Of a stretch of 32,000 nucleotides of DNA, positions 2,558 through 26,280 are shown in pieces; position 1 is the stretch's first letter, and the number at the start of each line of letters is the position of its first letter. Where the stretch lies: assembly GCA_004284765.1 (NCBI GenBank), contig NQJD01000001.1:90001-122000 (forward strand), given 5' to 3'. The translations under genes were made by a program, and so were the position numbers. Below the pieces are notes generated by a model that saw only the letters and a list, made by a program, of their open reading frames with translations, was not told where the DNA came from and ran no database searches. The stretch comes from Candidatus Electronema aureum. GTDB lineage: Bacteria; Desulfobacterota; Desulfobulbia; Desulfobulbales; Desulfobulbaceae.

Positions 2558-2565
2558 CTCTCTTT

Positions 2566-2606
2566 GACCACGGGGGCTTATCTCCTTTTCCCTATGACCC
2601 GTGGTC
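2566..2606 (+). promoter_or_regulatory. putative expression-platform hairpin with an anti-SD sequence in its loop
   Basis: GACCACGGG (2566-2574) pairs with CCCGTGGTC (2598-2606). The loop contains CTCCTTTT (2582-2589), which is complementary to AAAAGGAG (2611-2618) of the kimA SD. No U-tract follows the hairpin. Confidence 0.4.
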
Positions 2607-2625
2607 GCGTAAAAGGAGGTTTGCC

Positions 2626-4632: not shown

Positions 4633-4644
4633 TTCCGTCAGTAA

Positions 4645-4670
4645 TAGGGGCGAAAGATTTTTCGCCCCTA
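4645..4670 (+). terminator. REP-like hairpin, probable kimA terminator
   Basis: TAGGGGCGAAA-GAT-TTTTCGCCCCTA forms a perfect stem of 10-11 bp starting 13 nt after the kimA stop. It shares its arms with the repeat at 30299-30355. Confidence 0.5.
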
Positions 4671-4828
4671 CATCGCACACATGCTTGGTGCAGCCGCTGT
4701 GTGTAGGTTCTTCCGCTCCTGCGCTGGCTTTTGTTGAATGCCGCCTCCCTCCAGCGGAAATTCCTTGTTATTCACACCTGCCGGATGGTATTTTCAGTCC
4801 ATGCAATCATCTGAAGAAGGAGGGAAGC

Positions 4829-6940
4829 ATGGCCTTGGAAGTTCTGAGCTTCGTCAAAGCGGCGTGGATAGTGCCGCTCTGGAAGCGGCTTCGCCGAATA
4901 AGAGAAGAGGAAAAGCAGGAGCTGGAACGTCTGCGGGACGAGTTCGTTGATCCTGAAACCCTGCGCGGCCTCTACATTGAGCCGTTTCTGCAAGACCGCA
5001 ACCCGGCTGATGTGCAGCAGGACGATCTGCTGTCTGCGGCCCGGCAGCCTGCCTTTGAGCGGATCAACGAGTTCTTTCAGGGCGGTCTGCCTTTGGAGAA
5101 AGATGGCCGCCACCAGATGTTCATCCTCTCTGATGCCGGGATGGGCAAGACCTCGCTGCTCCTCATGATCAAGCTCATGCACCTGACCAGCTTCTGGCCT
5201 CAAGGGCATGGCTGCGCCCTGTTCAAGCTGGGCGCGGACACCTTGGAGCGGGTGCAGGCTCTGCCGAACAAGGGTGGGACCGTCCTCCTGCTTGATGCCT
5301 TGGATGAAGACCCGCTGGCGTGGAAGCGCATCCGCGACCGCCTGCTGGAGCTGCTGCGGGCCAGCGAGGATTTCCGCCGGGTGCTCATCTCCAGCCGCAC
5401 CCAGTTCTTCCCGGAGATGGAGCCAGACCGCTTTGGCCGCCCGGAGATCAGAGTGCTGTCCGGCTATCACTGCCCGGTGCTGTATCTTTCCCCCTTCACC
5501 GATGCCCAAGCGCAGGACTTCATTGAGCGCAAGCTGCCGCTGCGCTGGCATCATCATCTGCGGCTCCGGGCTGGCACGATCAGGAAGGAGCGGGCCAAGG
5601 CTGACTGTCTGCTCAAGCACATGCAGGATTTGCGGATGCGGCCCATGCTCCTCCAGCATATTGACAAGCTGCTGGCCAAGGACTGCCGCCAAGACTGGAA
5701 CGCCTACACGGTGTACGAGGCCCTGCTGGAGGAATGGCTTGACCGTGAGGTGCGCAAGCTGCGGGAGCAGCACAAGGAGCGGCGCGTCCCTGAGCGCAAG
5801 GAACTCTTTCTGGCCTGCCTGCGGATTGCCGAGCGGATGCAGCGGCAGGGAACGCGGGTCATCTCGGAGGACGAGCTGAAGCAGCTCATCAGTGCGGACG
5901 CGAACATAGCCTGGCTGGAGCAGTTCGAGCTGGGCGGTCGTTCCCTGCTCAATCGCAACTCTGACCGCGCCTTCCGCTTCAGCCATTACACGGTGCAGGA
6001 GTTCCTCTTGGCGTGGGGCATAGTGCATAAGCAGTTGACTGAACAGGAACCGCTGTGGGCCACGGATCAGCTTGTGCGCTTTGTTGATCTTGCTGACGGG
6101 ATATTCAGGCACGTTGATCAGATTGCCTTACCCTGTCCTTTGCCGGAGTCTTTTGGCGGTGGACTCGGAATAAAGATGATACTTATACGCGGCGGTAGTT
6201 TCCGCATGGGAGATATTCAGGGCAATGACAGTGAAGATGAACGGCCTGTACATGAGGTGGAGCTGGACGAGGACGACTTGGACGACTTTTTCTCTTTTGA
6301 AGAAGATGAAGATAAACTGCCAGTGCATGAGGTGGTGCTGGACAGCTTTGCCCTTGGCCGCTATCCAGTCACCTTTGCTGAGTATGATGCCTTCTGTGAG
6401 GCCACAGGTAAAGAAAAACCGAAAGATGAGGGCTGGGGTCGGGCGCAGCGGCCAGTGATCCGTGTGTGCTGGCATGATGCTGTCGCCTATTGTGCGTGGC
6501 TGCGCCAAGAAACTGGTCAGCCCTATCGTCTGCCCACCGAGGCGGAGTGGGAGTATGCCTGCCGGGCAGGCAGCGAGGCGGCTTGGTGTTTCGGAGATGA
6601 TGAGGCTCAACTTGAAGACTATGCTTGGTACAAGAAGAACTCCGGCGATACAACCCATCCAGTTGGCGAGAAAAAGGCCAATGTCTGGGGCCTGCATGAT
6701 ATGCACGGCAATGTCCGGGAGTGGTGTGCGGACTGGTATGATGCTGGTTATTATGCCGTCAGCCCTAAGGACAATCCGCTAGGCCCTGAGAGTGGCTTGT
6801 ACCGCGTGCTTCGCGGCGGTAGCTGGGACAGCACGCCCAAAAGCGTGCGGGCGGCGAATCGCGACGTGAGCGCACCAGGCTTCCGCGACTACGACTTGGG
6901 GTTCCGGCTTGCCCTTTCCTTGCCGCCAGCTCAACGCTGA
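4829..6940 (+). CDS. NACHT (STAND P-loop NTPase) protein with a C-terminal FGE-sulfatase (SUMF1/FGS) domain
   Basis: The ATG at 4829 follows GAAGGAGGGA. NACHT motifs: Walker A LSDAGMGKTSLLL, Walker B VLLLDALDED, and VLISSRTQFF. FGE-domain motifs: RGGSFRMG, LGRYPVTFAEYDAF, RPVIRVCWHDAVAYCAWL, YRLPTEAEWEYACRAG, NVWGLHDMHGNVREWCADWY and RVLRGGSW. Confidence 0.85.
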   Translation: MALEVLSFVKAAWIVPLWKRLRRIREEEKQELERLRDEFVDPETLRGLYIEPFLQDRNPADVQQDDLLSAARQPAFERINEFFQGGLPLEKDGRHQMFILSDAGMGKTSLLLMIKLMHLTSFWPQGHGCALFKLGADTLERVQALPNKGGTVLLLDALDEDPLAWKRIRDRLLELLRASEDFRRVLISSRTQFFPEMEPDRFGRPEIRVLSGYHCPVLYLSPFTDAQAQDFIERKLPLRWHHHLRLRAGTIRKERAKADCLLKHMQDLRMRPMLLQHIDKLLAKDCRQDWNAYTVYEALLEEWLDREVRKLREQHKERRVPERKELFLACLRIAERMQRQGTRVISEDELKQLISADANIAWLEQFELGGRSLLNRNSDRAFRFSHYTVQEFLLAWGIVHKQLTEQEPLWATDQLVRFVDLADGIFRHVDQIALPCPLPESFGGGLGIKMILIRGGSFRMGDIQGNDSEDERPVHEVELDEDDLDDFFSFEEDEDKLPVHEVVLDSFALGRYPVTFAEYDAFCEATGKEKPKDEGWGRAQRPVIRVCWHDAVAYCAWLRQETGQPYRLPTEAEWEYACRAGSEAAWCFGDDEAQLEDYAWYKKNSGDTTHPVGEKKANVWGLHDMHGNVREWCADWYDAGYYAVSPKDNPLGPESGLYRVLRGGSWDSTPKSVRAANRDVSAPGFRDYDLGFRLALSLPPAQR

Positions 6941-6953
6941 AGCGGCCTGCAAG

Positions 6954-7038
6954 CACACCAGTGATGTCCCATCCTCCTCACCAGTGTGCAGCCGCTCTCC
7001 ACACCAGTGATGTCCGCGCCTCGACACTGGTGTGCAGC
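6954..7038. repeat. tandem ~46-bp repeat (two units); the second unit forms a 10-bp hairpin
   Basis: CACACCAGTGATGTCC occurs at 6954-6969 and 7000-7015. The two units end in CACCAGTGTGCAGC (6979-6992) and CACTGGTGTGCAGC (7025-7038). CACACCAGTG (7000-7009) pairs with CACTGGTGTG (7025-7034). Confidence 0.6.
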
Positions 7039-7164
7039 ATCCCACAAAAGGCAGGCCGGAATGACATCTTCTTGCGTTCAGCTCGAACCAGGCGGAAACT
7101 ATTTGCAAAGACTAACACGGCAGTTGCCTGATCTCAATCTCTTCAACCAAGGAACAACAAATCA

Positions 7165-7827
7165 ATGGAACTCATTGCAGAAGTGATTAATTTTGTCCTC
7201 CACGTTGACACCTATCTCGAAAGCATCATCTTGGAGTACGGTGCGTGGACGCTGGCTATCCTTTTTGTCATCGTCTTTCTGGAAACAGGCTTCGTGGTCA
7301 CGCCTTTTCTGCCCGGCGACTCGCTTATTTTCGCTGCGGCTACCTTTGCTGCACGCCCCAGCAGCACTCTTGACCCCTGGTTACTCTTCTTTCTGCTCTC
7401 CATCGCCGCTGTACTCGGTGATACAGTCAATTATTGGATTGGCTATCGCATCGGAGCTAAAGCCTACACCGGTGAAGTTAAGTGGATTAAGAAACAATAC
7501 ATGGAGCGCACCCATGTTTTCTTTGAAAAGCATGGTGGGAGGACAATTTTCCTTGCTCGCTTCGTGCCGATCATCCGTACATTCGCTCCTTTTGTTGCTG
7601 GAGTCAGTCGGATGCCATACGGTTTCTTTATCCGCTGGAACATCATCGGTGGCATTACTTGGGTGGCGGTATTCACGCTCTTGGGTGTATTCTTCGGCAA
7701 TATCCCTTTTGTCCAGAAACACTTTGAATTAGTGATCATCGTCATCATTGTTCTCTCGGTTATCCCGGTAATTATCGAGGCAGTGAAGGCACACCGAGAG
7801 TTCCGCCAAGAGAAAAGCAAAGACTGA
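7165..7827 (+). CDS. dedA: DedA-family inner membrane protein
   Basis: Carries the DedA signatures VTPFLPGDSLIFAAATF and FLARFVPIIRTFAPFVAGV and has a multi-TM profile. Confidence 0.85.
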   Translation: MELIAEVINFVLHVDTYLESIILEYGAWTLAILFVIVFLETGFVVTPFLPGDSLIFAAATFAARPSSTLDPWLLFFLLSIAAVLGDTVNYWIGYRIGAKAYTGEVKWIKKQYMERTHVFFEKHGGRTIFLARFVPIIRTFAPFVAGVSRMPYGFFIRWNIIGGITWVAVFTLLGVFFGNIPFVQKHFELVIIVIIVLSVIPVIIEAVKAHREFRQEKSKD

Positions 7828-7854
7828 GTTGCGGGAGGAATAGCGGCGGTAGGG

Positions 7855-8250
7855 TCATGACGCGCCGTGACCCTGCTCCACCGTGCAGAACTCTTCCTGT
7901 CCCCAGTCGCTGCGAGTAACCGGCCCCAAGCCATGCGCGGCACGCGCTCGATTGCAGTCTTCATTCACTACGCCGTCAAGCAGAGAAGGCTGAAAGGCAC
8001 GGCAGACCGAAGAGCGTTGTTCGTAAATGCCACAGGCTACGCTCTTACCTATCTCGCCGGTTAAGGCGATGCAGCGCGGCTGTAGTCCTCTGGTACCTTT
8101 CATCTGCACCCGGAAGTCGTTGATTTTCTCGGTGAGATGATCAGGTACGCCGCCGGGACTGCCCGCTTCGGTCTCTGCCCAGTAAAAGGAGGCCCGGAAG
8201 AAGGCGCAGCAGGCTCCGCAGGTCAGACAAGGATTGCTGATTGTTTTCAT
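7855..8250 (-). CDS. YkgJ-family cysteine-cluster (Zn/Fe-chelating) protein
   Basis: CLTCGACCAFF (the CxxCGxCC motif) lies near the N-terminus and further Cys residues follow downstream. Start trimmed to the ATG at 8250 (MKTISNPC..). Confidence 0.65.
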   Translation of the reverse strand: MKTISNPCLTCGACCAFFRASFYWAETEAGSPGGVPDHLTEKINDFRVQMKGTRGLQPRCIALTGEIGKSVACGIYEQRSSVCRAFQPSLLDGVVNEDCNRARAAHGLGPVTRSDWGQEEFCTVEQGHGAS

Positions 8251-8433
8251 AGTGGTTGCAGGAAAGGCAGAAGGAGTGATGCTGAATACGGGCAAGCATA
8301 GAGTTTGCCGCTCACCGGGTCAAGGGGAAAAATTCCTTGCTGCGGGGCAACGGAATTTGCTAAGGTGCTGTGCGGGCTGCGCTCAAACGCGGCTGTTTTT
8401 GTCCCAAATCGTTTCTCTTTTCCCCGGCTCTTG

Positions 8434-8811
8434 ATGTCCCGGCGCAAACACTTATCCACTGAACATAAACACAGCAACGACGAGCCAGACAGCAGCTTTT
8501 CCTTTCAGCTCAGTCTGAGTGGGATTGTCGGTATCGCAGTGGTGCTGTTTTGTCTCTTCCTTTGGATGTTCCTCATAGGCATTTGGGCCGGGCAAACTAT
8601 CCTCTATCCACCGTCCCAACCGCTTGCGAAGGCAGCTGTATCGCAATCGCCTTCAGTCAAAAGCGAGGAAACACGTCGCCCGGCGAAACCTCTTACCCTT
8701 TCCCCAGAACCAGAACCGCTGCCGGAATCGGAAGGAGTCCTCATCCTACCTGGAGAACGAAAGCGGCGGATCGCTCCACCGAATATACCTGTTGCTTCTC
8801 CAGCGCAGTGA
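8434..8811 (+). CDS. hypothetical single-pass membrane protein with a Pro-rich tail
   Basis: From the ATG at 8434 (MSRRKHLSTEHKH..) there is one TM helix (IVGIAVVLFCLFLWMFLIGIWAG) and then a Pro/Ser/Glu-rich low-complexity tail. No family recognised. Confidence 0.45.
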   Translation: MSRRKHLSTEHKHSNDEPDSSFSFQLSLSGIVGIAVVLFCLFLWMFLIGIWAGQTILYPPSQPLAKAAVSQSPSVKSEETRRPAKPLTLSPEPEPLPESEGVLILPGERKRRIAPPNIPVASPAQ

Positions 8812-8953
8812 ACAGTGAAAACGCCTCATTCTTCTGATATCACGGTATAATCATCGGAATGCTTGACCAAATGCCACTGAAGGGTTAAGGTGAATAATTT
8901 TCACCTGTTCCCGGCCAGTCTCGGCCTCGTCTGTACTACCACGAATCTGCACG

Positions 8954-9442
8954 ATGATCATGAACGGAGCCACTGTTACACTCACATCGACGAAAATTCG
9001 TCCGGCCCACATGGGTGATGTCAAAATCATTCATACCTTGCTCCAGCAATTTGCTAATCGGGGCTTGCTCTTGGGTCGCTCGATCAGCTCGCTCTACGAT
9101 CAGCTGCGTGATTTTGTCGTTTATGACGACAACGGAGTGCAGGGAGTTTGCTCTTTGCATATTTGCTGGGATAATTTAGCAGAAATCCGCTCGTTGGCTG
9201 TGGTAGAGAGTAGTCAAGGTCAAGGCATAGGCCGTGAGCTGGTTTCCGCCTGCTTAATCGAAGCGCAAAAATTGGAGATCAACAGGGTCTTCACCTTGAC
9301 CTACCAAGGTGGTTTTTTCAGAAAATTGCACTTTGCACCCATTGAAAAAAGCGAATTGCCGCATAAAATATGGAGCGACTGCATTCAGTGTCCTAAATTC
9401 CCGGACTGCGACGAAGAAGCGCTGATCTGGATCAACGATTAA
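8954..9442 (+). CDS. GNAT-family N-acetyltransferase, short N-acetylglutamate-synthase-like type
   Basis: Contains the acetyl-CoA binding motif region [17 protein letters not shown] (Q/RxxGxG/A). Size and layout are typical of a GNAT protein. Confidence 0.75.
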
Positions 9443-9488
9443 TCCTGGCGGCGCGGAGTCAAATGAGTTCCGCCTGCGGAGAACAAGC

Positions 9489-12032
<2,544 letters not shown>

Positions 12033-12044: not shown

Positions 12045-12254
12045 CTATTCCATCAAATGCACCCGCTCGCAGTCTGGGCATATCCAAGTGGGGCCGTTGC
12101 TCATGCCCCACTTGTTTTCGGTAAAGCAATCAGGGCAGATGGCAAAGCCGCAGGTGCAAGTCCAACAGAAAGGCACTTGTTTCGTGCAGCAATGGCAGGT
12201 GTCGCCGTCGATACGTCTGCGACGACGTTTTCGGGGTGAATACTCGTCAGTCAT
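12045..12254 (-). CDS. small Arg-rich, Cys-rich (zinc-ribbon-like) protein, 69 aa
   Basis: The sequence is PRKRRRRRIDGDTCHCC..CWTCTCGFAICPDCF..WICPDCERV. Its ATG overlaps the cbiO stop (ATGA at 12251-12254), which suggests translational coupling. Confidence 0.55.
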   Translation of the reverse strand: MTDEYSPRKRRRRRIDGDTCHCCTKQVPFCWTCTCGFAICPDCFTENKWGMSNGPTWICPDCERVHLME

Positions 12255-12985
12255 CGTTGGTGTTCGTGGGGTCGGTCGCCATATGTGTGAACATGATGGT
12301 GGCTATGCAGACATTCGGTACCACTGCGCAGCGCACATCCTTCGCTTAACGTATATATCTCATCGCAGGTTTCAGCGAGAAAGTCCCAGTCATGCGAGAT
12401 GATCATGTAGCCGATCTCCAGCCGGTTGAGAATGCTGATCAGGCGAGTGCGGATATTGCTGTCGAGGTTGTTGGTTGGTTCATCTAAGAGCATCGCTTCT
12501 GGCTGCATAGACAAGATCGTGGCTAAGGAAATCAGCTTTTTCTCGCCGCCAGAAAGCTGATGTGTAACTCTCTCTGCCAAGGCGGAGAGACCAAGATCAG
12601 CTAATGTTTGGCGAGAGATACGCAGGGCTTCTGCTGGGTTCATGCCGAGATTGAGCGGGCCAAAGGCAATATCTTCAATCACCGTGGGCGAAAAAAGTTG
12701 GTCATCGGCATCTTGAAAGACCAAACCGATGCTTCGGCGTAGCTTGCGGAATTCCTCTTTACTGCTGATCTCTTGGCCCTTAAACAGCAGCCTCCCTGCT
12801 GTGGGTCGCAGCAGTCCCATGATGATATGCAGCAATGTGGTTTTGCCGCTACCGTTCGGGCCAATCAAACCAATACGCTGGCGATAATCCAGCGTCACGT
12901 CTGCTTGGTTGAGCAGCAGATGGCTGCTACCGGGATAGGCAAAAGATACCTGCTGAAGCTGGATAAGGGTTGGGTTAGCGGGCAT
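12251..12985 (-). CDS. cbiO: ECF/Cbi-Nik type ABC ATP-binding protein (CbiO/NikO) with a His-rich C-terminal tail
   Basis: Walker A GPNGSGKTTLL, signature LSGGEKKL and Walker B MLLDEPTNNLD. The tail reads ECLHSHHHVHTYGDRPHEHQR. Confidence 0.85.
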   Translation of the reverse strand: MPANPTLIQLQQVSFAYPGSSHLLLNQADVTLDYRQRIGLIGPNGSGKTTLLHIIMGLLRPTAGRLLFKGQEISSKEEFRKLRRSIGLVFQDADDQLFSPTVIEDIAFGPLNLGMNPAEALRISRQTLADLGLSALAERVTHQLSGGEKKLISLATILSMQPEAMLLDEPTNNLDSNIRTRLISILNRLEIGYMIISHDWDFLAETCDEIYTLSEGCALRSGTECLHSHHHVHTYGDRPHEHQR

Positions 12986-13050: not shown

Positions 13051-13464
13051 TTACCGGGAAGCCGCTGCTGCTGGGCGCGGCAGCTTCTTGGCCTTTGCCG
13101 CTGCAACCTTGTAGGGCTGAATCAGCACGTCCGCCGCAATGCCCAGTCCTGTATGCAGCTTTTGAATCATGGGTAGCGACAGGGAACGCTGCCGGTTGAT
13201 GATCTCGGCCACCCGCGCCCGTGTGCCGATAAATGGCTCTAAATCTTTCCGTGACAAGCCCCGGCTTTCCATCTGGTAGAGAATAGCCTCAACTGGATCA
13301 GGCTTGGGCAGATCGTAACGACCTTTCTCGTAGGCTTCAACCAAAATGGTCAGCATGTTCAGCTGGTCGCCGTCAGCAGTGTCTGCTTCCGCTGCAAACA
13401 GCCGCTCTATCTCCGCCAAAGCCTGCTGATACTCTGCTTCCGACCGGATTGGCTTCATATCCAT
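13051..13464 (-). CDS. higA: HigA-family antitoxin (XRE-type HTH)
   Basis: MKPIRSEAEYQQALAEIERLF.. followed by the HTH region LSRKDLEPFIGTRARVAEIINRQRSLSLPMIQKL. It lies 12 nt downstream of higB with a GAGGAG SD, so the order is toxin first, as in higBA. Confidence 0.8.
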   Translation of the reverse strand: MDMKPIRSEAEYQQALAEIERLFAAEADTADGDQLNMLTILVEAYEKGRYDLPKPDPVEAILYQMESRGLSRKDLEPFIGTRARVAEIINRQRSLSLPMIQKLHTGLGIAADVLIQPYKVAAAKAKKLPRPAAAASR

Positions 13465-13476: not shown

Positions 13477-13770
13477 TCACACGCTGGCTGCATCAACAGC
13501 ATCGTATTCCGCATGAGTGCCGACAAAGCGGATATAGACGATGCTGTATTCGTAGTGAATAGCCACAATCACGCGGTACTTGTTGCCTTTGATGTTGAAC
13601 ACCGCCCGGTTGTTGGCAACAAAGCTGACGTTGCGGTACGCATTCTTCACATCCGCAGGCGACTTCCAGTCCGCTTGTTGCACGTCCGTATGCCATGACT
13701 GCAAGGCTTGCTGCGCATCAGCATGTTTTTCCCAGAATTCCCGGAGAGTCTTTTTGGCAATGATCCGCAT
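13477..13770 (-). CDS. higB: HigB-family toxin (RelE-like mRNA interferase)
   Basis: From the ATG at 13770: MRIIAKKTLREFWEKHADAQQALQSWHTDVQQADWKSPADVKNAYRNVSFVANNRAVFNIKGNKYRVIVAIHYEYSIVYIRFVGTHAEYD. This is the typical HigB_toxin pattern. Confidence 0.8.
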   Translation of the reverse strand: MRIIAKKTLREFWEKHADAQQALQSWHTDVQQADWKSPADVKNAYRNVSFVANNRAVFNIKGNKYRVIVAIHYEYSIVYIRFVGTHAEYDAVDAASV

Positions 13771-13804: not shown

Positions 13805-13913
13805 AAACAGTGCTTCAGCCATGTGCTTTTCTCCGGTTGCTCCAAGTTGTATGCTTGCAAAGCTGGGCTACAAGGCAACAGCACGGTAGAGGTAGGCTGG
13901 GTTTTATTTTATA

Positions 13914-14285
13914 CTACGATGCTGGTGGCATTATTAATACAACCAGTGGATCTTCTTTTATTCGTTTTATCAATCTTTTAAGTTCGCCATCACTTGTTGA
14001 GTTTGGATAACGCAAACTACTAACAATATCCCACAATACAGTTCCACTTCTAAAAAACCTCACGCACTCTCCTGCCTCATCGATAGATGGGAAAACACGA
14101 ACACCAAGGTCTGATAAAGCTTCTTGTATCCCCTCGCGCGCACTTTTAGCTAAACGAATAGAATCGTCTTGCGCAGCAGTTCTATACATTAATTGCAATT
14201 CGCTATATTGAATTGTAATAAAGCTGTAATTCCCTTGGTCCATACGATATTTTATTTCTTTAGCTACTTTTCTAAAAACTTCCAT
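13914..14285 (-). CDS. hypothetical protein (123 aa), AT-rich gene
   Basis: The ATG at 14285 follows AGAGG (the ORF track starts 2 codons earlier at a TTG). Begins MEVFRKVAKEIKYRMDQGNYSF... No motif recognised. Its composition differs from the GC-rich gene immediately upstream (14424-15494). Confidence 0.5.
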   Translation of the reverse strand: MEVFRKVAKEIKYRMDQGNYSFITIQYSELQLMYRTAAQDDSIRLAKSAREGIQEALSDLGVRVFPSIDEAGECVRFFRSGTVLWDIVSSLRYPNSTSDGELKRLIKRIKEDPLVVLIMPPAS

Positions 14286-14423
14286 AGTCAAGACCTCTTT
14301 GTTTGATTATTCTTTGCACATAACAAGATAACAGCTCTACCTTCCCTGCAATATGCAGGACATCCAAACCAAGCTGGGGAAAGCCCCCGCCCTCCCCAAC
14401 TTTCACCCTTCCAACCCCCTATC

Positions 14424-15494
14424 CTACACCTCCAAATCCAAAATATCCACCAGCCTGCCGTCGTAATCGTTGCGAATCATCGTTCTGAGCGCGGCGTAGT
14501 TGTTGACCTTGATCTTCAAGCTGCTCACGGCGGAACCGGCAAAACCGGGCAGCGTGAATTCCCCGTTCGCGGTCACGGGCACCATGCCGCCGACCGCGCC
14601 GCCGTCGCGCATGGCAATCAGCCGGAATGAGAGCTGATTTTCCTGCACACTGGCATCTGCCTGAATGCGCAGCCGCTCGCTGGCCGAGAGGGTGCAGGCG
14701 GTGATGCTGACATGCGGCGTAGCCGCGCTGCCGGTGAGAATGCCGGTCTCCGGCGGGTTCGGATGATCGAGATTGACGGCGGTCAGCGGCGAGCGCAGCT
14801 TGCGTCCGTAGGTGCCGCTGCGCAGCGAGCCGTGCTCGGTGTAGCGCGTCGTGACCGACACCGTGTACTCGTTGTTCCAAGGATGGGCTTGGGCCGGAAT
14901 GTGCGGCACCAGCAGGATTTCCGTGTCGCTGACGCTGGCGAGCTGGCTTTGTTTCTCGCTGCCGCTACGGGTGCCTTCGATGACACAACCACAGTCCGGC
15001 TTTTTCGGGTCAAAGAGCAGATTGCTGCCGGTCAGCCGGAGCACGCCGTCCGGGTTGAGGACATTGTTCAGCTCAAGCGTGGTGTCTGCGGCGGAGAGGA
15101 TGGACGGGGCCTTTTCCTCGGTCGAAACCCGTTCCAAGGTCACGTTCTGCTGCACATATTGGACAAAGGGGCGCGTGGCCGAGACGCTGATCCGCAGCAG
15201 CTCGCTGACCGGCGGCAGCGGGTCAGCCGGGCTGTTCAGCTTGCCACGGAAGGCGGGGGCGAAGGTCAATGCCTCCTCCAGCGTGACCTGCATCCCGTTG
15301 CAGAGCATCTCTTTGATATTCTTCATTGTTGACTGAATGGAGGCCTTGGCCTGCTCCGCGCTCAGGCCGGTGTCTTTGGCAACGGCGGCGGCCAGCTCGT
15401 CATAGCCCGCTGTCTGCTTCGGCATGAAGCGCAGCTTGTAGGATGCAGGTTTGGTCAGAGGATTCGGCTCGACGCGGTATTGCACAGTTCCCAT
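14424..15494 (-). CDS. HU-like (HU-HIG type) DNA-binding domain protein with a C-terminal Ig-like DUF4469-like region
   Basis: The N-terminus VQYRVEPNPLTKPASYKLRFMPKQTAGYDELAAAVAKDTGLSAEQAKASIQSTMKNIKEMLCNGMQVTLEEALTF matches the Bacteroidota-type HU-like pattern. A later segment, LRLTGSNLLFDPKKPDCGCVIEG, resembles DUF4469. A GGAGGG SD precedes the ATG. Confidence 0.6.
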   Translation of the reverse strand: MGTVQYRVEPNPLTKPASYKLRFMPKQTAGYDELAAAVAKDTGLSAEQAKASIQSTMKNIKEMLCNGMQVTLEEALTFAPAFRGKLNSPADPLPPVSELLRISVSATRPFVQYVQQNVTLERVSTEEKAPSILSAADTTLELNNVLNPDGVLRLTGSNLLFDPKKPDCGCVIEGTRSGSEKQSQLASVSDTEILLVPHIPAQAHPWNNEYTVSVTTRYTEHGSLRSGTYGRKLRSPLTAVNLDHPNPPETGILTGSAATPHVSITACTLSASERLRIQADASVQENQLSFRLIAMRDGGAVGGMVPVTANGEFTLPGFAGSAVSSLKIKVNNYAALRTMIRNDYDGRLVDILDLEV

Positions 15495-15554
15495 GATGCC
15501 CTCCGTTCTGGTTTTTCAGATATTGATACAACGAGTTGCGGCTGATCAAAAGCC

Positions 15555-15583
15555 AAGATACGGCGGAGACTGCGCTTTGTCAA
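15555..15583 (-). promoter_or_regulatory. sigma70-type promoter (TTGACA-17-TATCTT) for the HU-like gene
   Basis: On the minus strand TTGACA (15583-15578) and TATCTT (15560-15555) are separated by a 17-nt spacer, about 60 nt upstream of the ATG at 15494. Confidence 0.5.
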
Positions 15584-15621
15584 TAAAATAGGGCGCGGCG
15601 AGGGAAGGAGACGGGCGGCAA

Positions 15622-15730
15622 AATACATACTGGTATGTATTGAGGAAACATACTGTATAGTTTTCCCGGAACATACCAGTATGTATTGGCGGAACATACT
15701 GGTATGTATTTGGGATACTATTCGGTATGT
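15622..15730. repeat. array of 4-5 palindromic sites, core ACATAC-N2-GTATGT
   Basis: AATACATACTGGTATGTATT (15622-15641); a degenerate site AACATACTGTATAG (15647-15660); GGAACATACCAGTATGTATTGG (15668-15689); GGAACATACTGGTATGTATTTGG (15691-15713); and a degenerate site GATACTATTCGGTATGT (15714-15730). Confidence 0.8.
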
Positions 15731-15755
15731 TTTTTGGGGGAGGTGGGGCGAGGGT

Positions 15756-16481
15756 TTAAGGCTGGGGTGCGAGGTTAATCAACCTTGCCATGGAACAACG
15801 AATATAACTTTCATTTTCCTTATCCCAATCTGTCATTATTCCTATTAATTTACTGGAAAAACCAGATGATCCATTGCTTGATAATTCAATAACAGGCCCT
15901 CCCGACATACCATTGGGATTTGGAGCTGTACTTTGTGACCCATCACAACGGGGTACTTTTTTCTTTTGAAATTTACAGAAAAAGTGTACTTCTTGATGAA
16001 CTTTCTTGATAGGCTGCGAAGGAAAATCTATAATTTTTGTTAACATATAAAAAGGCTCAACAAATGTTCCTTTGCTCGATATTGAAACCTTACTTTGAGG
16101 GTAGCCAAGCAAAAGAATACTATTTTCAGATCGATTAACTATAGAGTCACTTATCAATTCAATAGGAGAAAAAAATTCCAACTCTTCTGTTAAATAGACA
16201 AGAGAGATATCAACATCAGCCTCGTTGCAAGATATTTTCACCGCTTGATCTATAGGGATACTTGCAAGTTCCTCTCTCCTCAGAGGAATGATATTCTTTG
16301 CAAGCTCCTCATGGTCAATAACATGAGATGCTGTTGCCAAGTAATATTTATCCTTTATTTTTAGATAGACAGCACATCCTGAATATTCATATTTTCTTTT
16401 TATAGTTCCTATCCTGTAGACAGGAACAACATGTTTTTGAATATTCAGAAGAACTGGTTCGTACTGCTTGTAGTCAAACAT
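15756..16481 (-). CDS. trypsin/chymotrypsin-fold serine protease without a signal peptide, AT-rich gene
   Basis: The catalytic triad motifs appear in H-D-S order: LATASHV (His), DVDISLVYL (Asp) and NGMSGGPV (Ser). The N-terminus MFDYKQYEPVLLNIQKH is not hydrophobic. Confidence 0.7.
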   Translation of the reverse strand: MFDYKQYEPVLLNIQKHVVPVYRIGTIKRKYEYSGCAVYLKIKDKYYLATASHVIDHEELAKNIIPLRREELASIPIDQAVKISCNEADVDISLVYLTEELEFFSPIELISDSIVNRSENSILLLGYPQSKVSISSKGTFVEPFYMLTKIIDFPSQPIKKVHQEVHFFCKFQKKKVPRCDGSQSTAPNPNGMSGGPVIELSSNGSSGFSSKLIGIMTDWDKENESYIRCSMARLINLAPQP

Positions 16482-16699: not shown

Positions 16700-17452
16700 T
16701 CAGCCTATCAGCTCCAACACCACGAGCAATAACGCTGTCAACAAAAGGCCAGCCATAAGCAAGACATCATTGCGATGCAACTCCGTTGGTTCAAGGCTAT
16801 GAAAGGTACCGGAGAAGCCGCGCAGCAGCATTGCCTGCTGCACTCGTGCCGCTCGGTTCCAGCTGCGTACAATCACCATGCCCAGTAAATGGCCGTAGGT
16901 TCGGTACGTGTGCAGATTGGTGCGCGGATGGAAGCAACGTAGCTCTGCCGCCCGATGCAGGCGAAGAAACTCCTCGTGAATCAGACCGAGATATCGGTAG
17001 GAAAAAAGCAGAAGCAAGCAAAGACGCGGTGAGAGGCGCAGCAGTTGCAGACTATGCCCAAGACGTGCCACGGTGGAAGTGGACAACAAGCTAATGAAGA
17101 GCAGCACCGCTGCATTGCCCTTGATTGTGATCAGCGCAGCTAACCGCAGCCCGGTTAGGCTGAGATTAAGACCAGCAAAGCGCACAACCTCTGTTCCGCC
17201 ATAGGTCAGGGGGAGTAGCAGCCAAAGCAGCGCGTTGAAACTGTTGACGATCAGGAGCCGCCGGAGAATTGCTGCCCAAGACAGTCGTGCTGCCGCTGTC
17301 AGCAGCACGGACAAGAGCAACCCAGCAAAGGCAGTGCGGAAATTCTGACTGAGAGCGATGAGCAGACTGAGAACTACCGCACTGATCAGCTTACTGCGTG
17401 GGTCGGCCCGATGCAGGAATGAGCTGCCCGTGCTGAATTGTTCAAAGGTGAT
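16700..17452 (-). CDS. cbiQ: ECF transporter transmembrane (T) component CbiQ/NikQ; start codon uncertain and apparently non-canonical
   Basis: The frame stays open upstream of the ORF-track TTG (17320) as far as TAG at 17474-17476. That extension encodes a typical CbiQ N-terminus (..ITFEQFSTGSSFLHRADPRSKLISAVVLSLLIALSQ). An AGGAGGG SD precedes ATC ATC at 17455/17452. Confidence 0.75.
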   Translation of the reverse strand: MTFEQFSTGSSFLHRADPRSKLISAVVLSLLIALSQNFRTAFAGLLLSVLLTAAARLSWAAILRRLLIVNSFNALLWLLLPLTYGGTEVVRFAGLNLSLTGLRLAALITIKGNAAVLLFISLLSTSTVARLGHSLQLLRLSPRLCLLLLFSYRYLGLIHEEFLRLHRAAELRCFHPRTNLHTYRTYGHLLGMVIVRSWNRAARVQQAMLLRGFSGTFHSLEPTELHRNDVLLMAGLLLTALLLVVLELIG

Positions 17453-19814: not shown

Positions 19815-20435
19815 CAAGTAAACCCCCGGCTCTGCCGGGGGACTCCCGAAGTTTGACAGTTCCGGGAAAATATGGAAGTCTCGCTATTCTGAACCGCTCA
19901 AAGTTCAAGAAGAGGAGACTTCCATGTACGACAGCCAAAGTCTAAGCCACACCAAGTGGGAATGCAAGTATCACATTGTCTGGATACCAAAATACCGCAA
20001 GAAAGCTCTCTTTGTCGAGTTGCGGAAATACTTGGGAGAAATCTTGAGGGAGCTGGCCAAGCAAAAAGAATGCGAGGTGCTGGAGGGGCATCTCATGCCT
20101 GACCATGTGCATATCATGCTTTCCATACCGCCCAAGTATTCGGTGTCTCAAGTCGTTGGATTCATCAAAGGCAAGAGCGCAATCCAGATTGCCCGCAACT
20201 TCCAAGGGAGAAGAATTTCGTTGGTCAGAATTTCTGGGCCAGAGGTTATTATGTTTCAACAGCTGGAAAGGACGAAGAAGTCGTGAGAGCATACATTCAA
20301 GCTCAGGAGAAGGAAGACCAGCGTCTTGAGCAGCTCAACCTGTTTGAATAGCGGCTGCCTTCAGGCAGCTCAAGTTGTTTAACCGCTTTGAGCGGTTCAG
20401 AATCTCAAGCCACCGGCTTTGCCGGTGGTACTTGA
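19815..20435 (+). mobile_element. IS200/IS605-family insertion sequence (IS200-like, tnpA only)
   Basis: Similar subterminal hairpins sit at both ends: CCCCCGGCTCTGCCGGGGG (19823-19841) and CCACCGGCTTTGCCGGTGG (20410-20428). A perfect 17-bp inverted repeat pairs 19887-19903 with 20386-20402. A 5' stem, GGAAGTCTC (19874-19882) with GAGACTTCC (19915-19923), occludes the SD as in IS200. Confidence 0.8.
19924..20351 (+). pseudogene. tnpA: IS200 tnpA (Y1 HUH transposase) disrupted by a 1-nt frameshift
   Basis: The N-terminal 95 aa or so are typical (KYHIVWIPKYRKK, HUH motif DHVHIMLSIPP). After ..ARNFQG near 20205-20215 the conserved C-terminus KNFVGQNFWARGYYVSTAGKDEEVVRAYIQAQEKEDQRLEQLNLFE continues in another frame to TAG at 20349-20351. 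The total length of 428 nt is not a multiple of 3. Confidence 0.8.
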
Positions 20436-20478: not shown

Positions 20479-21885
20479 TTATCCCCTCACATACGCATCC
20501 GCATCATTCGCCACAATCACGCCGTAGTTGATTGCGCCCAGCCAGCCGCTCATGATGATGCCGACCGAGCCGACATGGAACAGCCCGCCCACTTCCTTGA
20601 ACAAAGTGCGGGAGATGTCCAGCCCTTCAAATTTAGTGCCGAAAGAGCTGCCCTTGGTGTGCAGGGTGTAGCGGTGGAAAGTCTTGGGCGTGGCTGTCTC
20701 CACAGTGTCGATTTTCTCGCGGATGCCCGGAAGATAGCGTTCCAAATCCACTACGCAGCGTTCCGCCATCGCCGCCTTGGCCTGTTTGTAGGCCGCTTCG
20801 TCGAGGCCCGCCCAGTCGTCGTAGTTGGCATTCATCGAGGCAACGACCGTGTAATCAGGCTGCTCAGGCCGGGTTTTCGGATAATAGACCGAAAAGGTGC
20901 GGCTTTTGGTGTCCATCCGCCGCATTTCCTCAGAGGAGAAAACTTCAGCGGTGGAGGTGAAGAGCAGGTCGCCCACGTCCGGGAAAGACTCGCCCTTGCG
21001 GATGCCGAAATAAACCTGACAGGAGGAGTTGTTCACCACCACCTTATCGAAACGGCTGAGGAAATCGCTGCTGAAGGCCTCGCGGCCCGCGAGCTGGTCA
21101 ATGGTGTTGGTGATGCCGGAATTGGAGACAACGGCTTTGGCCGCAATCTCTCGCCCTTTCACCAGCACGCCGCGCACTTTGCCCTTTTCGACCAAAACCC
21201 GCTCGGCCTTTGCGCTGGTGCAGATGGTCACGCCGTTGGCTTGTAGATCGTCCGCCATCATCGCAATCAGCTTGTCCGTGCCGCCCTCGAAGGTGAACAC
21301 GCCTTTGCTCATAAAATTTGAAAAAACAATGCCGTAAGTGATGGCTGGCTCGTTCATGGTCGAGCCGTTGGCGTAGGTGATCGGTTCCATTAACAGGCGG
21401 TGGACATCCGAGCGGCCCGGAAAGAATTTCTCAAATAACTCCCGCGTGGTCATGCTTTGGTCGTCGTAAAAGTTCATCGCTCGGACTGTATTGAAAAAAT
21501 CATCCACCACGCTGCGCTCGATCTTGAAATCCTCATGCAGAATGCGGACAAAATCGTCTTTTGAAAAAGTGGTGGTGAGCGAGAACTGCGGGTTGTCAAA
21601 GACGATGTTTTTCAGCTGAACGATGGAATCTTTGATCGCCTTCGACCAGTATTTGCTGCATGTTTTCACCATGCCGTAAGGAAATCCGTGCAGCGAGACA
21701 TCAAAAACATGACCGCCGCGCTTAAACCACGCGGCCAAGCCGCCAAGCTGGAAATGCTGCTCCAGCAGCAGCACGCTGTGGCCAGCTTTGGCCAAGCGGT
21801 TGGCGCAGGTCAGGCCACCAAGGCCGGAGCCGATAACGATGATGTCGTAGCTGCTCTGAACTTTATCGAAAGGAGTGAAAATCAT
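20479..21885 (-). CDS. NAD(P)/FAD-dependent oxidoreductase, phytoene desaturase (CrtI/CrtD) family
   Basis: Rossmann motif YDIIVIGSGLGGLTCANRLAKAGHSVLLLEQHFQLGG, a length of about 470 aa and a C-terminal FAD-fold segment. The start is either the ATG at 21885 or the TTG at 21924 (uncertain). Confidence 0.8.
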   Translation of the reverse strand: MIFTPFDKVQSSYDIIVIGSGLGGLTCANRLAKAGHSVLLLEQHFQLGGLAAWFKRGGHVFDVSLHGFPYGMVKTCSKYWSKAIKDSIVQLKNIVFDNPQFSLTTTFSKDDFVRILHEDFKIERSVVDDFFNTVRAMNFYDDQSMTTRELFEKFFPGRSDVHRLLMEPITYANGSTMNEPAITYGIVFSNFMSKGVFTFEGGTDKLIAMMADDLQANGVTICTSAKAERVLVEKGKVRGVLVKGREIAAKAVVSNSGITNTIDQLAGREAFSSDFLSRFDKVVVNNSSCQVYFGIRKGESFPDVGDLLFTSTAEVFSSEEMRRMDTKSRTFSVYYPKTRPEQPDYTVVASMNANYDDWAGLDEAAYKQAKAAMAERCVVDLERYLPGIREKIDTVETATPKTFHRYTLHTKGSSFGTKFEGLDISRTLFKEVGGLFHVGSVGIIMSGWLGAINYGVIVANDADAYVRG

Positions 21886-21942
21886 GATGCGTGGATTTGT
21901 AAGTTCAATGGAAAAAGAAAGCAAATGATTTGCTGCGTCCTG

Positions 21943-22659: not shown

Positions 22660-22980
22660 TCAATTTTCAATAATTTCCGTTTTTGCAATTCGGCAACGAT
22701 TGCCTCCTGATCTTGTTCTGAAATACCACCTTGAAACTGATACATTGCCCGAATTGAATTCAGCAAGCTTTTCTATCCGTTCCATAACGTACTCTATGGA
22801 ATTCTTCTCGGACGCGGCGGTTTCTTTATAACTCTCTTCTTTGCTGATGCCAATTCTGTTCTGCGGATTATGGATTTCCTCTTCTTTTCGTGCAATTTGG
22901 ATAAGAAGCTGCGCGAGACGAAACTTGTCTCTGTATCCTAACAGCTCGCATCCTTTTACGATTTCGTCGTATCCCATCAT
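22660..22980 (-). CDS. hypothetical protein (about 106 aa), AT-rich gene
   Basis: The ATG at 22980 follows GAGGAAAA (the ORF track starts at GTG 23001). No motif recognised. Confidence 0.4.
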   Translation of the reverse strand: MMGYDEIVKGCELLGYRDKFRLAQLLIQIARKEEEIHNPQNRIGISKEESYKETAASEKNSIEYVMERIEKLAEFNSGNVSVSRWYFRTRSGGNRCRIAKTEIIEN

Positions 22981-23004
22981 GCTATTTTCCTCAATAATCA
23001 CTTG

Positions 23005-23675: not shown

Positions 23676-25052
23676 TTACTTCAACAAATGCTGATTGACA
23701 ATCGTCACGCCGCTCAACATCGCCCCAACAATACCGAGATAGCCCTGATCCGTGCCTGCGATGAAGAGATTCGGCCACGGGGTCTTGCCGCTCTTGATTT
23801 TGACTGGGCTGCCGTAAACCGCGCCTGCGCATTTGCCGGTGAAGCGTTCGATGGTCAGGGGGGTGAAGCTGTCTTGATAGACCGCGTCCCGGCTGTAATC
23901 ACCGAGGAGCTGCCGCACTGCCGCCGCTGACTGCTGGCCGCAGTCAGTCTTCAGCCGCCGGTACTCCGCTTCGTCAGCCTGCCGCCAGAGGTCGTAGTTT
24001 GCCGCGTTGGTGACGCGCACCTGCGCCGGGCCGCTCTGCGCCAAGCCTTGGAAATGATCGGGAAAGCAGATCACGCCCCAGGACGGGTCAATCGGCCCGC
24101 TGGGGCGGTGATAGGCCAGTCGCTGCTTGAGGCTGTAGAAAATGATCGTCTTGCCGCTGCGCTCCGGCGGCAGGTGCAGCTCCGGCACAAGGCTGATGCT
24201 TTCCATGAAGCTCATTTTGCCGGTGTAGCGGCCTGCTTCCAGCGGCCAGCCGCTCATCTCGGCAGTGCCGGGAATGCCTGCGGTGGACAGCACTGCGTCG
24301 GCAAAAAGCTCCTCGCCGCTTTGCAGGCTGATGCCCCGCACTGTGCCGCCGTCGGTGAGGATATGAGCCACCGGAGCGCGGAAGCGGATTTCGCCGCCAA
24401 ACGCCTTGTACTGGGCCAGCAGCATGTCCAGCAAATTCTTGATCGTGCCTGCGGGCCGGAAGAAGCCCTCCAAGAAGACCGCCCGGAACATGATCGCAAA
24501 CTGGCCGATGTCCATGTCATCTTCCTCGGCGTTGCCATAGACCATCAGCGGCAGCAGGAGCATGTCCTCCAGCAGCGGCTCGGCCAGACGGCTGCGCAGG
24601 AAGGCCCGCGCCGACTGCCAAGGCCGCTCGGCAAAAGGATCGTAGGCATCCACCTCGCGGACAAGGCTACGGAAGCGGTCTGCCGCCAGGGGGAAATGGG
24701 CGGCGATCTCCTCGATGAGCAGGTTGAGGTCGTTGGAGAAACGCAGACTGATGCCGGGAAAAATCACCTCGGATTCCAGCTGCTCATGGGTGGTGAACTC
24801 TTTGCGGGAAAGCTGAAGCTGGCGGAAGAGCCGGTTCAGCGGCGCGTGCTTCAGCCCCGGCGGGGCGAAGTTGGTCATCGCGTGCAGACCGGTCTCCAGC
24901 AGATGTCCTTGGCGGAGGTAGTACGAATTGAGGCCGCCGGGCAGACTGTGCTGCTCGACGATCAAGGGCTTTAGCCCGAAGCGCGCGGCGCGGATGCCTG
25001 CGGCCAGCCCGGACAGGCCGCCGCCGATGATGATGAGCTGCCAGTCAGCCAT
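23676..25052 (-). CDS. NAD(P)/FAD-dependent oxidoreductase, phytoene desaturase family (paralogue of 20479..21885)
   Basis: From the ATG at 25052: MADWQLIIIGGGLSGLAAGIRAARFGLKPLIVEQHSLPGG. Its length and C-terminal segment are similar to the other copy. Confidence 0.8.
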   Translation of the reverse strand: MADWQLIIIGGGLSGLAAGIRAARFGLKPLIVEQHSLPGGLNSYYLRQGHLLETGLHAMTNFAPPGLKHAPLNRLFRQLQLSRKEFTTHEQLESEVIFPGISLRFSNDLNLLIEEIAAHFPLAADRFRSLVREVDAYDPFAERPWQSARAFLRSRLAEPLLEDMLLLPLMVYGNAEEDDMDIGQFAIMFRAVFLEGFFRPAGTIKNLLDMLLAQYKAFGGEIRFRAPVAHILTDGGTVRGISLQSGEELFADAVLSTAGIPGTAEMSGWPLEAGRYTGKMSFMESISLVPELHLPPERSGKTIIFYSLKQRLAYHRPSGPIDPSWGVICFPDHFQGLAQSGPAQVRVTNAANYDLWRQADEAEYRRLKTDCGQQSAAAVRQLLGDYSRDAVYQDSFTPLTIERFTGKCAGAVYGSPVKIKSGKTPWPNLFIAGTDQGYLGIVGAMLSGVTIVNQHLLK

Positions 25053-25147
25053 AATTGGTGTGCGCCGGAACGGCAGTTCTGTCGGAAAAACAAAGGCAGA
25101 TGCCGAGACCTGCCTTTGCGCTCTGTTCAACTCAGCCGGGCCTGCGC

Positions 25148-25585: not shown

Positions 25586-26179
25586 TCAAACAGGTGGTGT
25601 ATTGTTCTGCTCTGTTACCACCTCGAAATCTGATGTCCCCTTAGGCAGATACTTAATCACTACGTATAATGCCCAAGAAAATCCTCCTGTATAAAATGCC
25701 ACTAATCCTAAAGCAATAACAACAGGAAAGTTTAAATTCTTTGCTGCCTCATAAACAAATGATAAACCTAAAAAGAAGTAAACTGAGAAAACGATATGCA
25801 CTGACCATGCGAAAAAATTTTCAGCCAGCCGTCCTTTTGGAGACCGCTCAAGCCACTCTTCCCACCCCATGAAGCCAATTGGAACCAAAACATTTTCTGT
25901 TTTTTGTTTCAAATAAGCTCCAGCCCTCATCAAACTTGTTTGTTCAAAAATAACCATAAAAGCAAATACAAGCGTAATTACTGGCGAGACAAGAAGTACA
26001 GGCCATAACTTATATTGCAATCCAGAGCCAATAATAAAAGGTATTGCTGTAATTCCTCCAAGTTGGACTTTTATAAGCCTCTCTTTTATTCCGAGTATCT
26101 CGTTGCGTAACGCTTGGTATTGCAGCGAAATGAATTCTTCTTGCTTTTCTTGACTAATTTTGAATCCGTTTTGATTCAT
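25586..26179 (-). CDS. hypothetical multi-pass membrane protein (197 aa), AT-rich gene
   Basis: The ATG at 26179 follows AGGAG. An N-terminal soluble helix (QEKQEEFISLQYQALRNEILGIKERL) is followed by about four hydrophobic segments. No family recognised. Confidence 0.5.
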   Translation of the reverse strand: MNQNGFKISQEKQEEFISLQYQALRNEILGIKERLIKVQLGGITAIPFIIGSGLQYKLWPVLLVSPVITLVFAFMVIFEQTSLMRAGAYLKQKTENVLVPIGFMGWEEWLERSPKGRLAENFFAWSVHIVFSVYFFLGLSFVYEAAKNLNFPVVIALGLVAFYTGGFSWALYVVIKYLPKGTSDFEVVTEQNNTPPV

Positions 26180-26280
26180 TTCATTACTCCTGTATCTGCA
26201 TTCAAGCAACCGAAAAAATTCCATAAGGCCAAGTTTTTGGTTACTTGGAGACATTTCGTATGGCAATCAATCACCTTGTG

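Follow-up and report, generated by a model that had tools for sequence, protein, structure and literature searches.

The question raised by this locus of Candidatus (Ca.) Electronema aureum is whether three neighbouring genes, encoding a trypsin-like protease, an HU-like protein and a small orphan open reading frame (ORF), form one defence system or belong to separate modules that have come to lie side by side. The stretch of DNA analysed, hereafter the window, is 32,000 nt long, and in it the protease gene (15756-16481), the HU-like gene (14424-15494), the 123-aa ORF (ORF123, 13914-14285), higB (13477-13770) and higA (13051-13464) all lie on the minus strand between nikQ (16700-17320) and nikO (12251-12985). 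A preliminary description made from the DNA letters had joined the first three genes into a candidate cassette of defence type, and had speculated that the two AT-rich ones, protease and ORF123, might be an original pair later separated by the GC-rich HU-like gene. We find it probable that the locus is instead a mosaic islet of independent modules, with an HU-HIG core and swappable cargo, and not one system. According to this reading an accessory islet of about 3.7 kb would have entered the nikMLKQO nickel-importer operon between nikQ and nikO. Its core module (about 15764-14375), made up of a palindrome array, a sigma-70 promoter, a 5' untranslated region, the HU-HIG/Ig gene and a terminator hairpin, would be a paralogous unit present in dozens of copies in each cable-bacterium genome, all sharing architecture and 23-bp spacing and each having a repeat sequence of its own, and the slots on both sides of the core would hold AT-rich foreign genes exchanged by recombination. 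The upstream slot would here be filled by a stand-alone cytoplasmic protease whose family includes the effector domains of Lamassu LmuA and of type XI retrons, and the downstream slot by ORF123, which elsewhere lies alongside Shedu and TIR genes.

What carries this reading is the comparison with sister loci (referred to by L numbers). In four contexts, counted on contigs long enough to judge, protease and HU-like gene recur together as one 2.2-kb block, which corresponds to window 16549 to about 14340 and is conserved at about 80% nucleotide identity, and order, orientation and spacing of the block are alike while its flanks differ, being nikQ in the window, rmlBC in L004 and one further gene common to L005 and L006; the HU-like genes of the block encode 355-360 aa, and in blastn comparison with L003-L010 the conserved module that holds the protease runs from about 16549 to about 15760. 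Conservation of this kind speaks for a two-gene system, in which the HU-like protein would sense or bind nucleic acid and control the protease as its effector, or be cleaved by it, ORF123 being unrelated, and the same notion is favoured by the resemblance of the protease to Lamassu and retron effector domains that need a sensor partner, as well as by the close protease clade, whose members (75-98% identical) have an HU unit downstream in every informative context, namely the window, L003, L004 and L005/L006. The sister loci however also show the two genes apart. Between L004 and L008 the rmlBC flank is 93% and the HU unit 87% identical, yet the protease of L004 is swapped for an unrelated 219-aa gene in L008 and the downstream genes differ, so that after rmlBC the HU unit stays while its neighbours change. 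L005 and L007 likewise share an HU unit of 89% nucleotide identity that is preceded by the protease in the former versus PDC-M02A (DUF4365) and PDC-M02B in the latter. The homology breaks exactly between protease and HU-like gene, at the 5' edge of the array just past the protease stop codon at window 15764, and breaks again after the terminator hairpin, and in L003 the protease is intact and the HU gene fragmented, the protease being followed there by a 5' piece of the HU gene, then by PDC-M02A/B and then by the array once more. From its sequence L003 looks like a recombinant of L005-type and L007-type loci. PDC-M02A (E=6.5e-78) and PDC-M02B (384-385 aa, about 1e-125) thus sit in the protease slot in both L003 (1540-3223) and L007 (8028-9714), flanked in the former on either side by an incomplete copy of the HU gene's 5' region; the upstream slot furthermore holds a DUF6896 gene in L010 and L144 and other genes in L141, L142 and L143, although the HU protein of L143 is 94% identical, and the downstream slot of L009 holds PDC-M48A.

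In addition, 86 HU-like loci are without the protease, including relatives 79-94% identical (94%, 86%, 84% and 84% among them), no protease was found with the protease profile within 10 kb of any of 80 HU-like loci from genomes, and neither an HU-like gene nor any recurrent partner was found by clustering, Pfam and PADLOC in 45 metagenome loci with distant homologues of the protease. The HU-like gene moreover has a promoter and a terminator of its own. We therefore regard the two-gene system as unlikely, and it retains what small probability we give it because this HU subclade is, up to now, the only setting in which the close protease clade has been observed. On the mosaic reading the pairing in the four loci would go back to one capture event, after which the protease would have spread with the HU unit, and would imply no obligatory partnership.

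The three-gene cassette fares worse. Its merits are that the three genes are adjacent, co-oriented and beside higBA, and that there is some defence-type association for each of them, but the conserved DNA block ends before ORF123, the homology of the HU block stopping at about 14375-14338 at the hairpin after the HU stop codon, and what follows differs from locus to locus. The third gene encodes 110 aa in L004, 230 aa in L005 and 123 aa in the window, and unrelated genes occupy the third position in L004, L005, L007-L010 and L141-L144. ORF123 itself is an AT-rich orphan (GC content, hereafter GC, 0.376) that starts either at ATG 14285, giving 123 aa, or at TTG 14291, giving 125 aa, and ends at 13914, and it has no match in Pfam, NCBIfam, PHROG or PADLOC; the preliminary description was right to call it a small AT-rich ORF, followed by higBA. 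Its eight homologues (65-80% identity) lie in two contexts: in the first they are preceded by a Shedu SduA_C gene and followed by one for a BglII endonuclease, within an island that further contains HNH, reverse-transcriptase, HEPN and IS110 genes, and in the second they come directly 3' of a pentapeptide-TIR gene. They never occur close to a protease gene or an HU-like gene, and ORF123 is absent from all other HU-like and protease loci examined. Since HU family and distant proteases also occur apart, the proposed cassette fails for want of co-occurrence, a ground for refutation named in the preliminary description itself, and we consider it most improbable. The further notion of an AT-rich pair split by the HU-like gene is in effect reversed by the comparison, as it is the HU unit that is the conserved resident part and the AT-rich genes that would be interchangeable cargo on either side of it. 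The base composition agrees with this, since the GC of the protease gene (0.355) and of ORF123, set against 0.541 for the whole window, marks both as foreign cargo; the HU-like gene has a GC of 0.621, and HU-HIG genes are likewise GC-richer than their surroundings in 73 loci (median GC 0.606, and 0.756 at third codon positions, versus 0.55 for the rest of the locus).

The protease is 241 aa long and begins without a hydrophobic signal sequence, as read directly from its N-terminus. It carries the motifs ATASHV (H53), DISLV (D91) and GMSGGP (S193), and these three residues are invariant in seven close homologues as well as across 35 homologues that are 22-36% identical to it. The Pfam family Trypsin_2 matches it slightly below threshold (E=3.5e-5, 25 bits, gathering score 27.6), and its AlphaFold model, built on a diverse alignment (predicted local distance difference test, pLDDT, 90.5; predicted TM-score, pTM, 0.89), finds chymotrypsin-fold S1 proteases (thrombin, urokinase (uPA), chymotrypsin) in Foldseek at E about 1e-8. 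Going by sequence and model, it is a stand-alone cytoplasmic S1/chymotrypsin-fold protease of Trypsin_2-like type, with a double β-barrel and His, Asp and Ser in that order, and is predicted to be catalytic, in agreement with what the preliminary description had recognised as a signal-peptide-less chymotrypsin-fold protease with an intact triad. Its top profile matches are defence effector domains, namely that of LmuA (PADLOC PDLC03855, E=1.3e-11), over model positions 6-180 of 425, and that of the type XI retron reverse transcriptase (RT)-protease, over model positions 349-478 of 510. The family as a whole follows the same pattern, since 27 of 35 sampled members match the LmuA protease-type model of PADLOC and 14 of the 35 the type XI retron RT-protease model. 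A profile search of 1.8 billion representatives gathered 306 clusters of stand-alone proteins, mostly about 240-290 aa long.

The likeness to these systems (PDLC03855, PDLC02959, PDLC02960) thus consists in a chymotrypsin-fold serine protease domain with an intact triad. The differences are that the window protease ends at 241 aa and has no LmuA C-terminal region, that there is no SMC-like LmuB or LmuC among the window ORFs, that of the retron protein only the protease part is present, with no RT domain in the neighbours and no msr/msd non-coding RNA as judged by the lack of a Rfam match, and that the family is stand-alone at about 240-290 aa with no recurrent neighbour. Since only the effector part is matched and LmuB/LmuC, RT and non-coding RNA are all missing nearby, the protease falls outside both Lamassu and the type XI retrons, and on profile evidence it is a free-standing relative of their effector domains. 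An entirely different view would make it a housekeeping or quality-control peptidase of cable bacteria, outside conflict systems altogether, and an intact triad in a compact single-domain fold is what such an enzyme would have; but a housekeeping role sits poorly with the finding of only 6 close homologues among 5.8 billion proteins, with the variable positions of the gene, with a GC of 0.355 in a 0.54 genome, with the lack of a conserved context and with top profile matches to defence effectors, and we consider it very improbable. A phage origin of the protease and the HU-like gene was also considered and rejected, as the HU family is absent from the viral contigs of IMG/VR and the protease family has one match there.

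The HU-like protein (356 aa) is matched by Pfam close to the thresholds, with 25.6 bits for HU-HIG (cut-off 26.2), 24.8 for Bac_DNA_binding (22.4) and 23.2 for DUF4469 (22.6). Its AlphaFold model (pLDDT 88) predicts an N-terminal β-hairpin, an HU core at about 31-122, an Ig-like DUF4469 domain at about 131-239 and a C-terminal β-rich domain at about 250-354, and the top match of this model in the Protein Data Bank, by Foldseek, is 4FMR, the Bacteroides HU+Ig protein BVU_2165 (E=8.7e-13 over about 245 columns), followed by HU/IHF chains at target-normalised TM-scores of 0.65-0.87. Structure comparison of the predicted model thus confirms the HU fold, and an N-terminal HU/IHF-fold domain followed by a C-terminal Ig-like DUF4469 domain as in 4FMR places the protein among the HU-HIG proteins; the preliminary description, which had proposed an HU-like domain joined to a DUF4469-like region in a protein of 356 aa, is borne out. 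Many of its 944 homologues come from Ca. Electronema and Ca. Electrothrix, and all 80 loci found in a scan of species-representative genomes are in cable bacteria and related Desulfobulbaceae; Ca. E. halotolerans has 6 or more of these genes and the metagenome-assembled genome S01.Bin068 has about 19, with identities between 35 and 81%. Many of the copies sit at contig ends. The gene is accordingly a member of a lineage-specific, fast-diverging expansion in cable bacteria. No recurrent neighbour of the family was found among the loci examined, TPR/NTPase genes making up only 7 of 110 neighbour proteins; the sole mildly recurrent neighbour is a large NTPase+TPR (STAND-like) gene, which in about 10 loci (for instance L050, 7685-9718) precedes the HU-HIG gene by some 2 kb in the same orientation. 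Paired HU-HIG/DUF4469 paralogues 4-10 kb apart, sometimes on opposite strands, are seen in L141 (9810-10886), L055 (3193 and 10001) and L079 (10001 and 20215), and echo the adjacent pairs reported for the HU-HIG genes of Bacteroidetes.

The expansion invites comparison with the HU-HIG clade (PF18291, DUF4469; 4FMR) of Burroughs et al. 2017 (PMC5499826), which is suspected of a role in genetic conflict. The two have in common the HU fold with its Ig-like fusion as well as a lineage-specific expansion into many fast-diverging paralogues per genome without a conserved operon partner. They differ in that the present expansion is in cable bacteria (Desulfobulbaceae) and not in Bacteroidetes, in that the window protein has 356 aa versus about 235 aa and carries an extra N-terminal hairpin and a second C-terminal β-rich domain, and in that paralogue-specific 23-bp arrays lie upstream of the genes, which find no mention in PMC5499826, the genes of Bacteroidetes being compared here by description only. 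Our literature searches returned nothing on DUF4469 and no description of the HU-HIG family in cable bacteria.

The arrays are the most distinctive part of the HU unit. The preliminary description had pointed out a promoter and a palindrome array belonging to the HU-like gene, and both are present. The promoter is of sigma-70 type (TTGACA-17-TATCTT, 15555-15583, minus strand, 10 of 12 consensus matches), and the array at the 5' edge of the unit comprises about five units at 23-bp spacing (15625-15732), three of them perfect and two degenerate: four register copies were detected at 15625-15724 (repeat family D1), and a fifth, degenerate palindrome-like unit near 15717-15732, recognised by eye from the sequence, extends the array to about 15732. 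The perfect palindrome ACATACYRGTATGT occurs in three of the units, nowhere else in the 32 kb and 0 times in shuffled sequence. At the other end of the unit lies a GC-rich terminator-like hairpin of the type TTGGGGAG...CTCCCCAA (14375-14400, minus strand), where the homology between sister loci stops. This layout is general. Of 74 loci, 67 have a promoter TTGACR-N16-18-TAnnnT, whose median position is -87 relative to the ATG, equivalent hairpins lie directly 3' of the stop codon in most paralogues, and the best period of self-similarity upstream of the gene is exactly 23 bp in 60 of the 74 loci, versus only multiples of three in coding-sequence controls. Upstream self-identity reaches at least 0.6 in 40 of 74 loci versus none of the 74 controls. 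An array comprises 3-8 units, and 35 of 47 well-defined units include a 10-20-bp palindrome.

What varies is the repeat itself, which is private to the paralogue, reading ACATACCAGTATGT in the window, ACATGCTAGCATGT in L008, ACATCCTAGGATGT in L009 and CTCCATGCnnGCATGGAG in L011, L012 and L020, with direct repeats in L046 and L082. Units match the consensus of their own array at about 0.8, and between the consensus units of different loci the median match is 0.48, close to the chance level. Near-perfect 23-bp direct-repeat arrays (self-identity 0.8-1.0, 5-8 units) were noted in L046 (about 9730-9860), L082 (about 9670-9810), L025, L019, L037 and L040, and suggest recent expansion or homogenisation of the array. 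An apparent complementarity between C-rich sequence ahead of the array and G-rich sequence past the stop codon also suggested that terminal inverted repeats might bound the HU unit; this was rejected, since in 67 loci the inverted-repeat scores within a locus were the same as those of controls in direct orientation or with mismatched loci.

The constancy of the array geometry in the face of diverging repeat sequences leads us to infer that each HU-HIG protein binds its own array, as one host factor could not read all of the arrays. The protein might occupy its array as stacked dimers and so regulate itself, and we give binding and autoregulation together, judged from sequence patterns, about an even chance. 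Phased repeat arrays with binding proteins are familiar from plasmid iterons (about 22-bp spacing), from ParR/parC and from the heptad arrays of the omega repressor. The HU arrays are like these in having 3-8 phased repeats upstream of the promoter of a small gene with a DNA-binding fold, and in a specificity that varies between relatives, and unlike them in being chromosomal, in dozens per genome, without a linked replication initiator or partition ATPase, and with a putative binder of HU-fold/Ig type.

A rival account holds that the HU-HIG protein does not bind the array at all, so that some other factor would read the palindromes, or hairpins in RNA or DNA would insulate or terminate transcription from the upstream cargo, while the HU-HIG protein would bind protein or RNA, a role that has been suggested for members of the clade fused to an Ig domain. 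This account draws on several observations that count against self-binding. The family is acidic (median pI 5.1), the Ig domain in the Ig-fused HU-HIG structure 4FMR has been argued to occlude the DNA cleft, and HU-HIG proteins have been deemed unlikely sequence-specific transcription factors (Burroughs et al. 2017, PMC5499826). Furthermore, repeat similarity shows no clear covariation with protein divergence and tracks no single domain (rho 0.06-0.19, confounded by phylogeny), and the array, if transcribed, folds at -42.8 kcal/mol (z = -9.2), a stability on account of which it may have a role at the RNA level. On the other hand, the repeat differs in almost every paralogue although the arrays keep to the 23-bp spacing, lie at a constant position with respect to the promoter and stay linked to the gene, and a single host factor could not read repeats as varied as these, the linked protein being the only element in cis that varies with the array; for plain termination, moreover, 3-8 phased copies would be superfluous, as would a fixed 23-bp register. 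We consider the rival account less probable than not, and the private arrays would argue against the published view that HU-HIG proteins are unlikely to be sequence-specific.

Downstream of ORF123 the locus again bears marks of replacement. The toxin gene higB (13477-13770, minus strand) encodes 97 aa from MRIIAKK, a start with which the gene call of L001 agrees, and matches Pfam HigB_toxin (6e-33) and PADLOC PD-Lambda-2_A (1.6e-42); the antitoxin gene higA (13051-13464, minus strand) encodes a 137-aa protein with the helix-turn-helix domain HTH_3 (Pfam, 5e-5) that matches PD-Lambda-2_B over positions 1-125 of 402. With the toxin first and the helix-turn-helix antitoxin following after a gap of 12 nt, the pair has the arrangement of a type II toxin-antitoxin module. 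The likeness to PD-lambda-2 lies in the matches to component A and to the N-terminus of component B, but of the 402 positions of B higA covers only 125, and a third gene is missing, nikO being next, for which reasons we take it to be an ordinary higBA pair. Between ORF123 and higB lies a 73-nt remnant of the 5' end of a vapB-like gene (13805-13877, minus strand), which comprises a promoter, a ribosome-binding site and the first five codons (MAEAL) before running out of frame, and which is 92% identical to L004 4314-4386. Its intact counterpart is an 84-aa gene with a PIN toxin gene in L004, and it is intact in L005 as well. Since the vapB frame breaks after five codons and higBA comes next, one toxin-antitoxin module appears to have replaced another, and in the proposed history of the islet higBA would have taken the place of an earlier vapBC module, of which the promoter stub was left behind. 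The same 5' element (60-90 nt, with promoter, ribosome-binding site and about nine codons, MAEALLAQA) occurs up to five times per locus before different downstream sequences, at 11734, 12826, 13600, 14214 and 14992 in L008, 6226 and 6978 in L009, 8028 in L003 and 11690 in L010. Because it recurs before different genes, it may, to judge from these positions, serve as a recombination joint between cargo cassettes.

The setting of the islet is the locus of a Ni/Co energy-coupling factor (ECF) transporter, in which the five-gene block separates nikO from nikM, nikL, a nikK-like gene (DUF4198) and nikQ. The left flank, nikQ/cbiQ, encodes the T component (16700-17320, minus strand; Pfam CbiQ 1.8e-22, NCBIfam ECF_T_CbiQ 1.3e-30), and the right flank, nikO/cbiO, the ATPase (12251-12985, minus strand; Pfam ABC_tran 4.8e-31, NCBIfam cobalt transporter and ECF ATPase models about 1e-54). 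In most closed genomes of cable bacteria nikMLKQO is the operon structure (PMC11247825), and from this published structure the five-gene block would be an insertion into the operon. Neither a direct repeat of at least 8 nt, as a target-site duplication, nor inverted repeats were found flanking the nikQ|nikO insertion, there is no integrase among the annotated window ORFs, the scan leaving aside those in 1-9450 and 30359-31817, and the window has no tRNA and no known RNA or retron non-coding RNA by Rfam, the RNA search having returned only sub-threshold microRNA-hairpin artefacts caused by the palindromes.

Other features of the window may be mentioned alongside the islet. A Y1 transposase gene of IS200/IS605 type (19924-20286, plus strand; Pfam Y1_Tnp 1.1e-28), a second mobile element of the nik locus, is encoded on the other strand some 330 nt upstream of nikM. 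A 69-aa Cys-rich ORF (12045-12254, minus strand) with several CxxC-type pairs, CPDC occurring twice, starts 4 nt before the nikO stop in an ATGA overlap; it has no Pfam match, and no gene is called there in the public annotation of L001. Two AT-rich ORFs without a Pfam match, of 226 aa (25586-26266, minus strand, local GC 0.40-0.45) and 113 aa (22660-23001, minus strand), are surrounded by housekeeping genes and may likewise be short stretches of foreign cargo. Finally, two paralogous FAD-dependent amine-oxidase/desaturase-like genes (20479-21924 and 23676-25130, minus strand) flank a PAS-domain gene and a gene with a cold-shock domain and DUF1294.

As to the function of the cargo, the defence-like context seen in the preliminary description is supported by the LmuA and RT-protease matches, by the Shedu and TIR neighbours of the ORF123 homologues and by PDC-M02 and PDC-M48, which PADLOC lists as candidate systems, in the slots of sister loci, and the statement that no named defence system matches the gene combination likewise holds. 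On these associations it is most likely that protease and ORF123 are separate single-gene cargo of defence or abortive-infection type, or orphaned effectors. The islet resembles defence hotspots and integron-like arrays in that alternative small cargo, PDC-M02 and PDC-M48 included, occupies the same slots, with the vapB 5' element between cargo, and is unlike them in lacking an integrase (among the scanned ORFs), attC-type sites, tRNA and terminal repeats and in having as anchor a multi-copy paralogous unit present at many sites. A bolder proposition is that HU-HIG/Ig units with self-recognised arrays are the anchors of recombination hotspots for defence cargo (the LmuA-like protease, PDC-M02, PDC-M48, ORF123), and perhaps regulators or insulators of it; we hold this to be doubtful, but if true, such self-addressed HU-HIG anchors would be a previously undescribed organisation of defence islets and the first evidence of sequence specificity in HU-HIG proteins.

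Several points should be set against the mosaic reading as well. The HU unit found with every informative member of the close protease clade leaves some room for a functional coupling within that subclade, which we think improbable. The insertion is inferred from the published operon structure and not from comparison with an empty nikQ-nikO site in a sister genome, and the block shows no target-site duplication, inverted repeat or, in the searched parts, integrase that would point to a way of movement. The defence role suggested for protease and ORF123 moreover rests on association, and the neighbours of the distant protease homologues are a mix of defence-type genes (YhcG/PDC-S02, GmrSD, AbiGi, TIR and Fic) and ordinary metabolic ones.

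For the study of defence systems the analysis removes a false lead, in that protease, HU-like gene and ORF123 are not, as a set, a new system. What appears to be new is the HU-HIG expansion in cable bacteria with its private 23-bp arrays, of which we found no description in the literature searched. An expansion known only from Bacteroidetes is thereby seen in cable bacteria too, and the private arrays make the question of HU-HIG recognition directly testable by binding. The HU units furthermore mark slots of candidate defence genes, including the stand-alone relatives of the LmuA effector domain, a protease family of roughly 300 clusters, which are candidates for phage-defence screening. The conductive fibres of this organism depend on nickel, and as the islet splits the operon of the nickel importer, one may ask by what means this strain of Ca. 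E. aureum expresses nikO.

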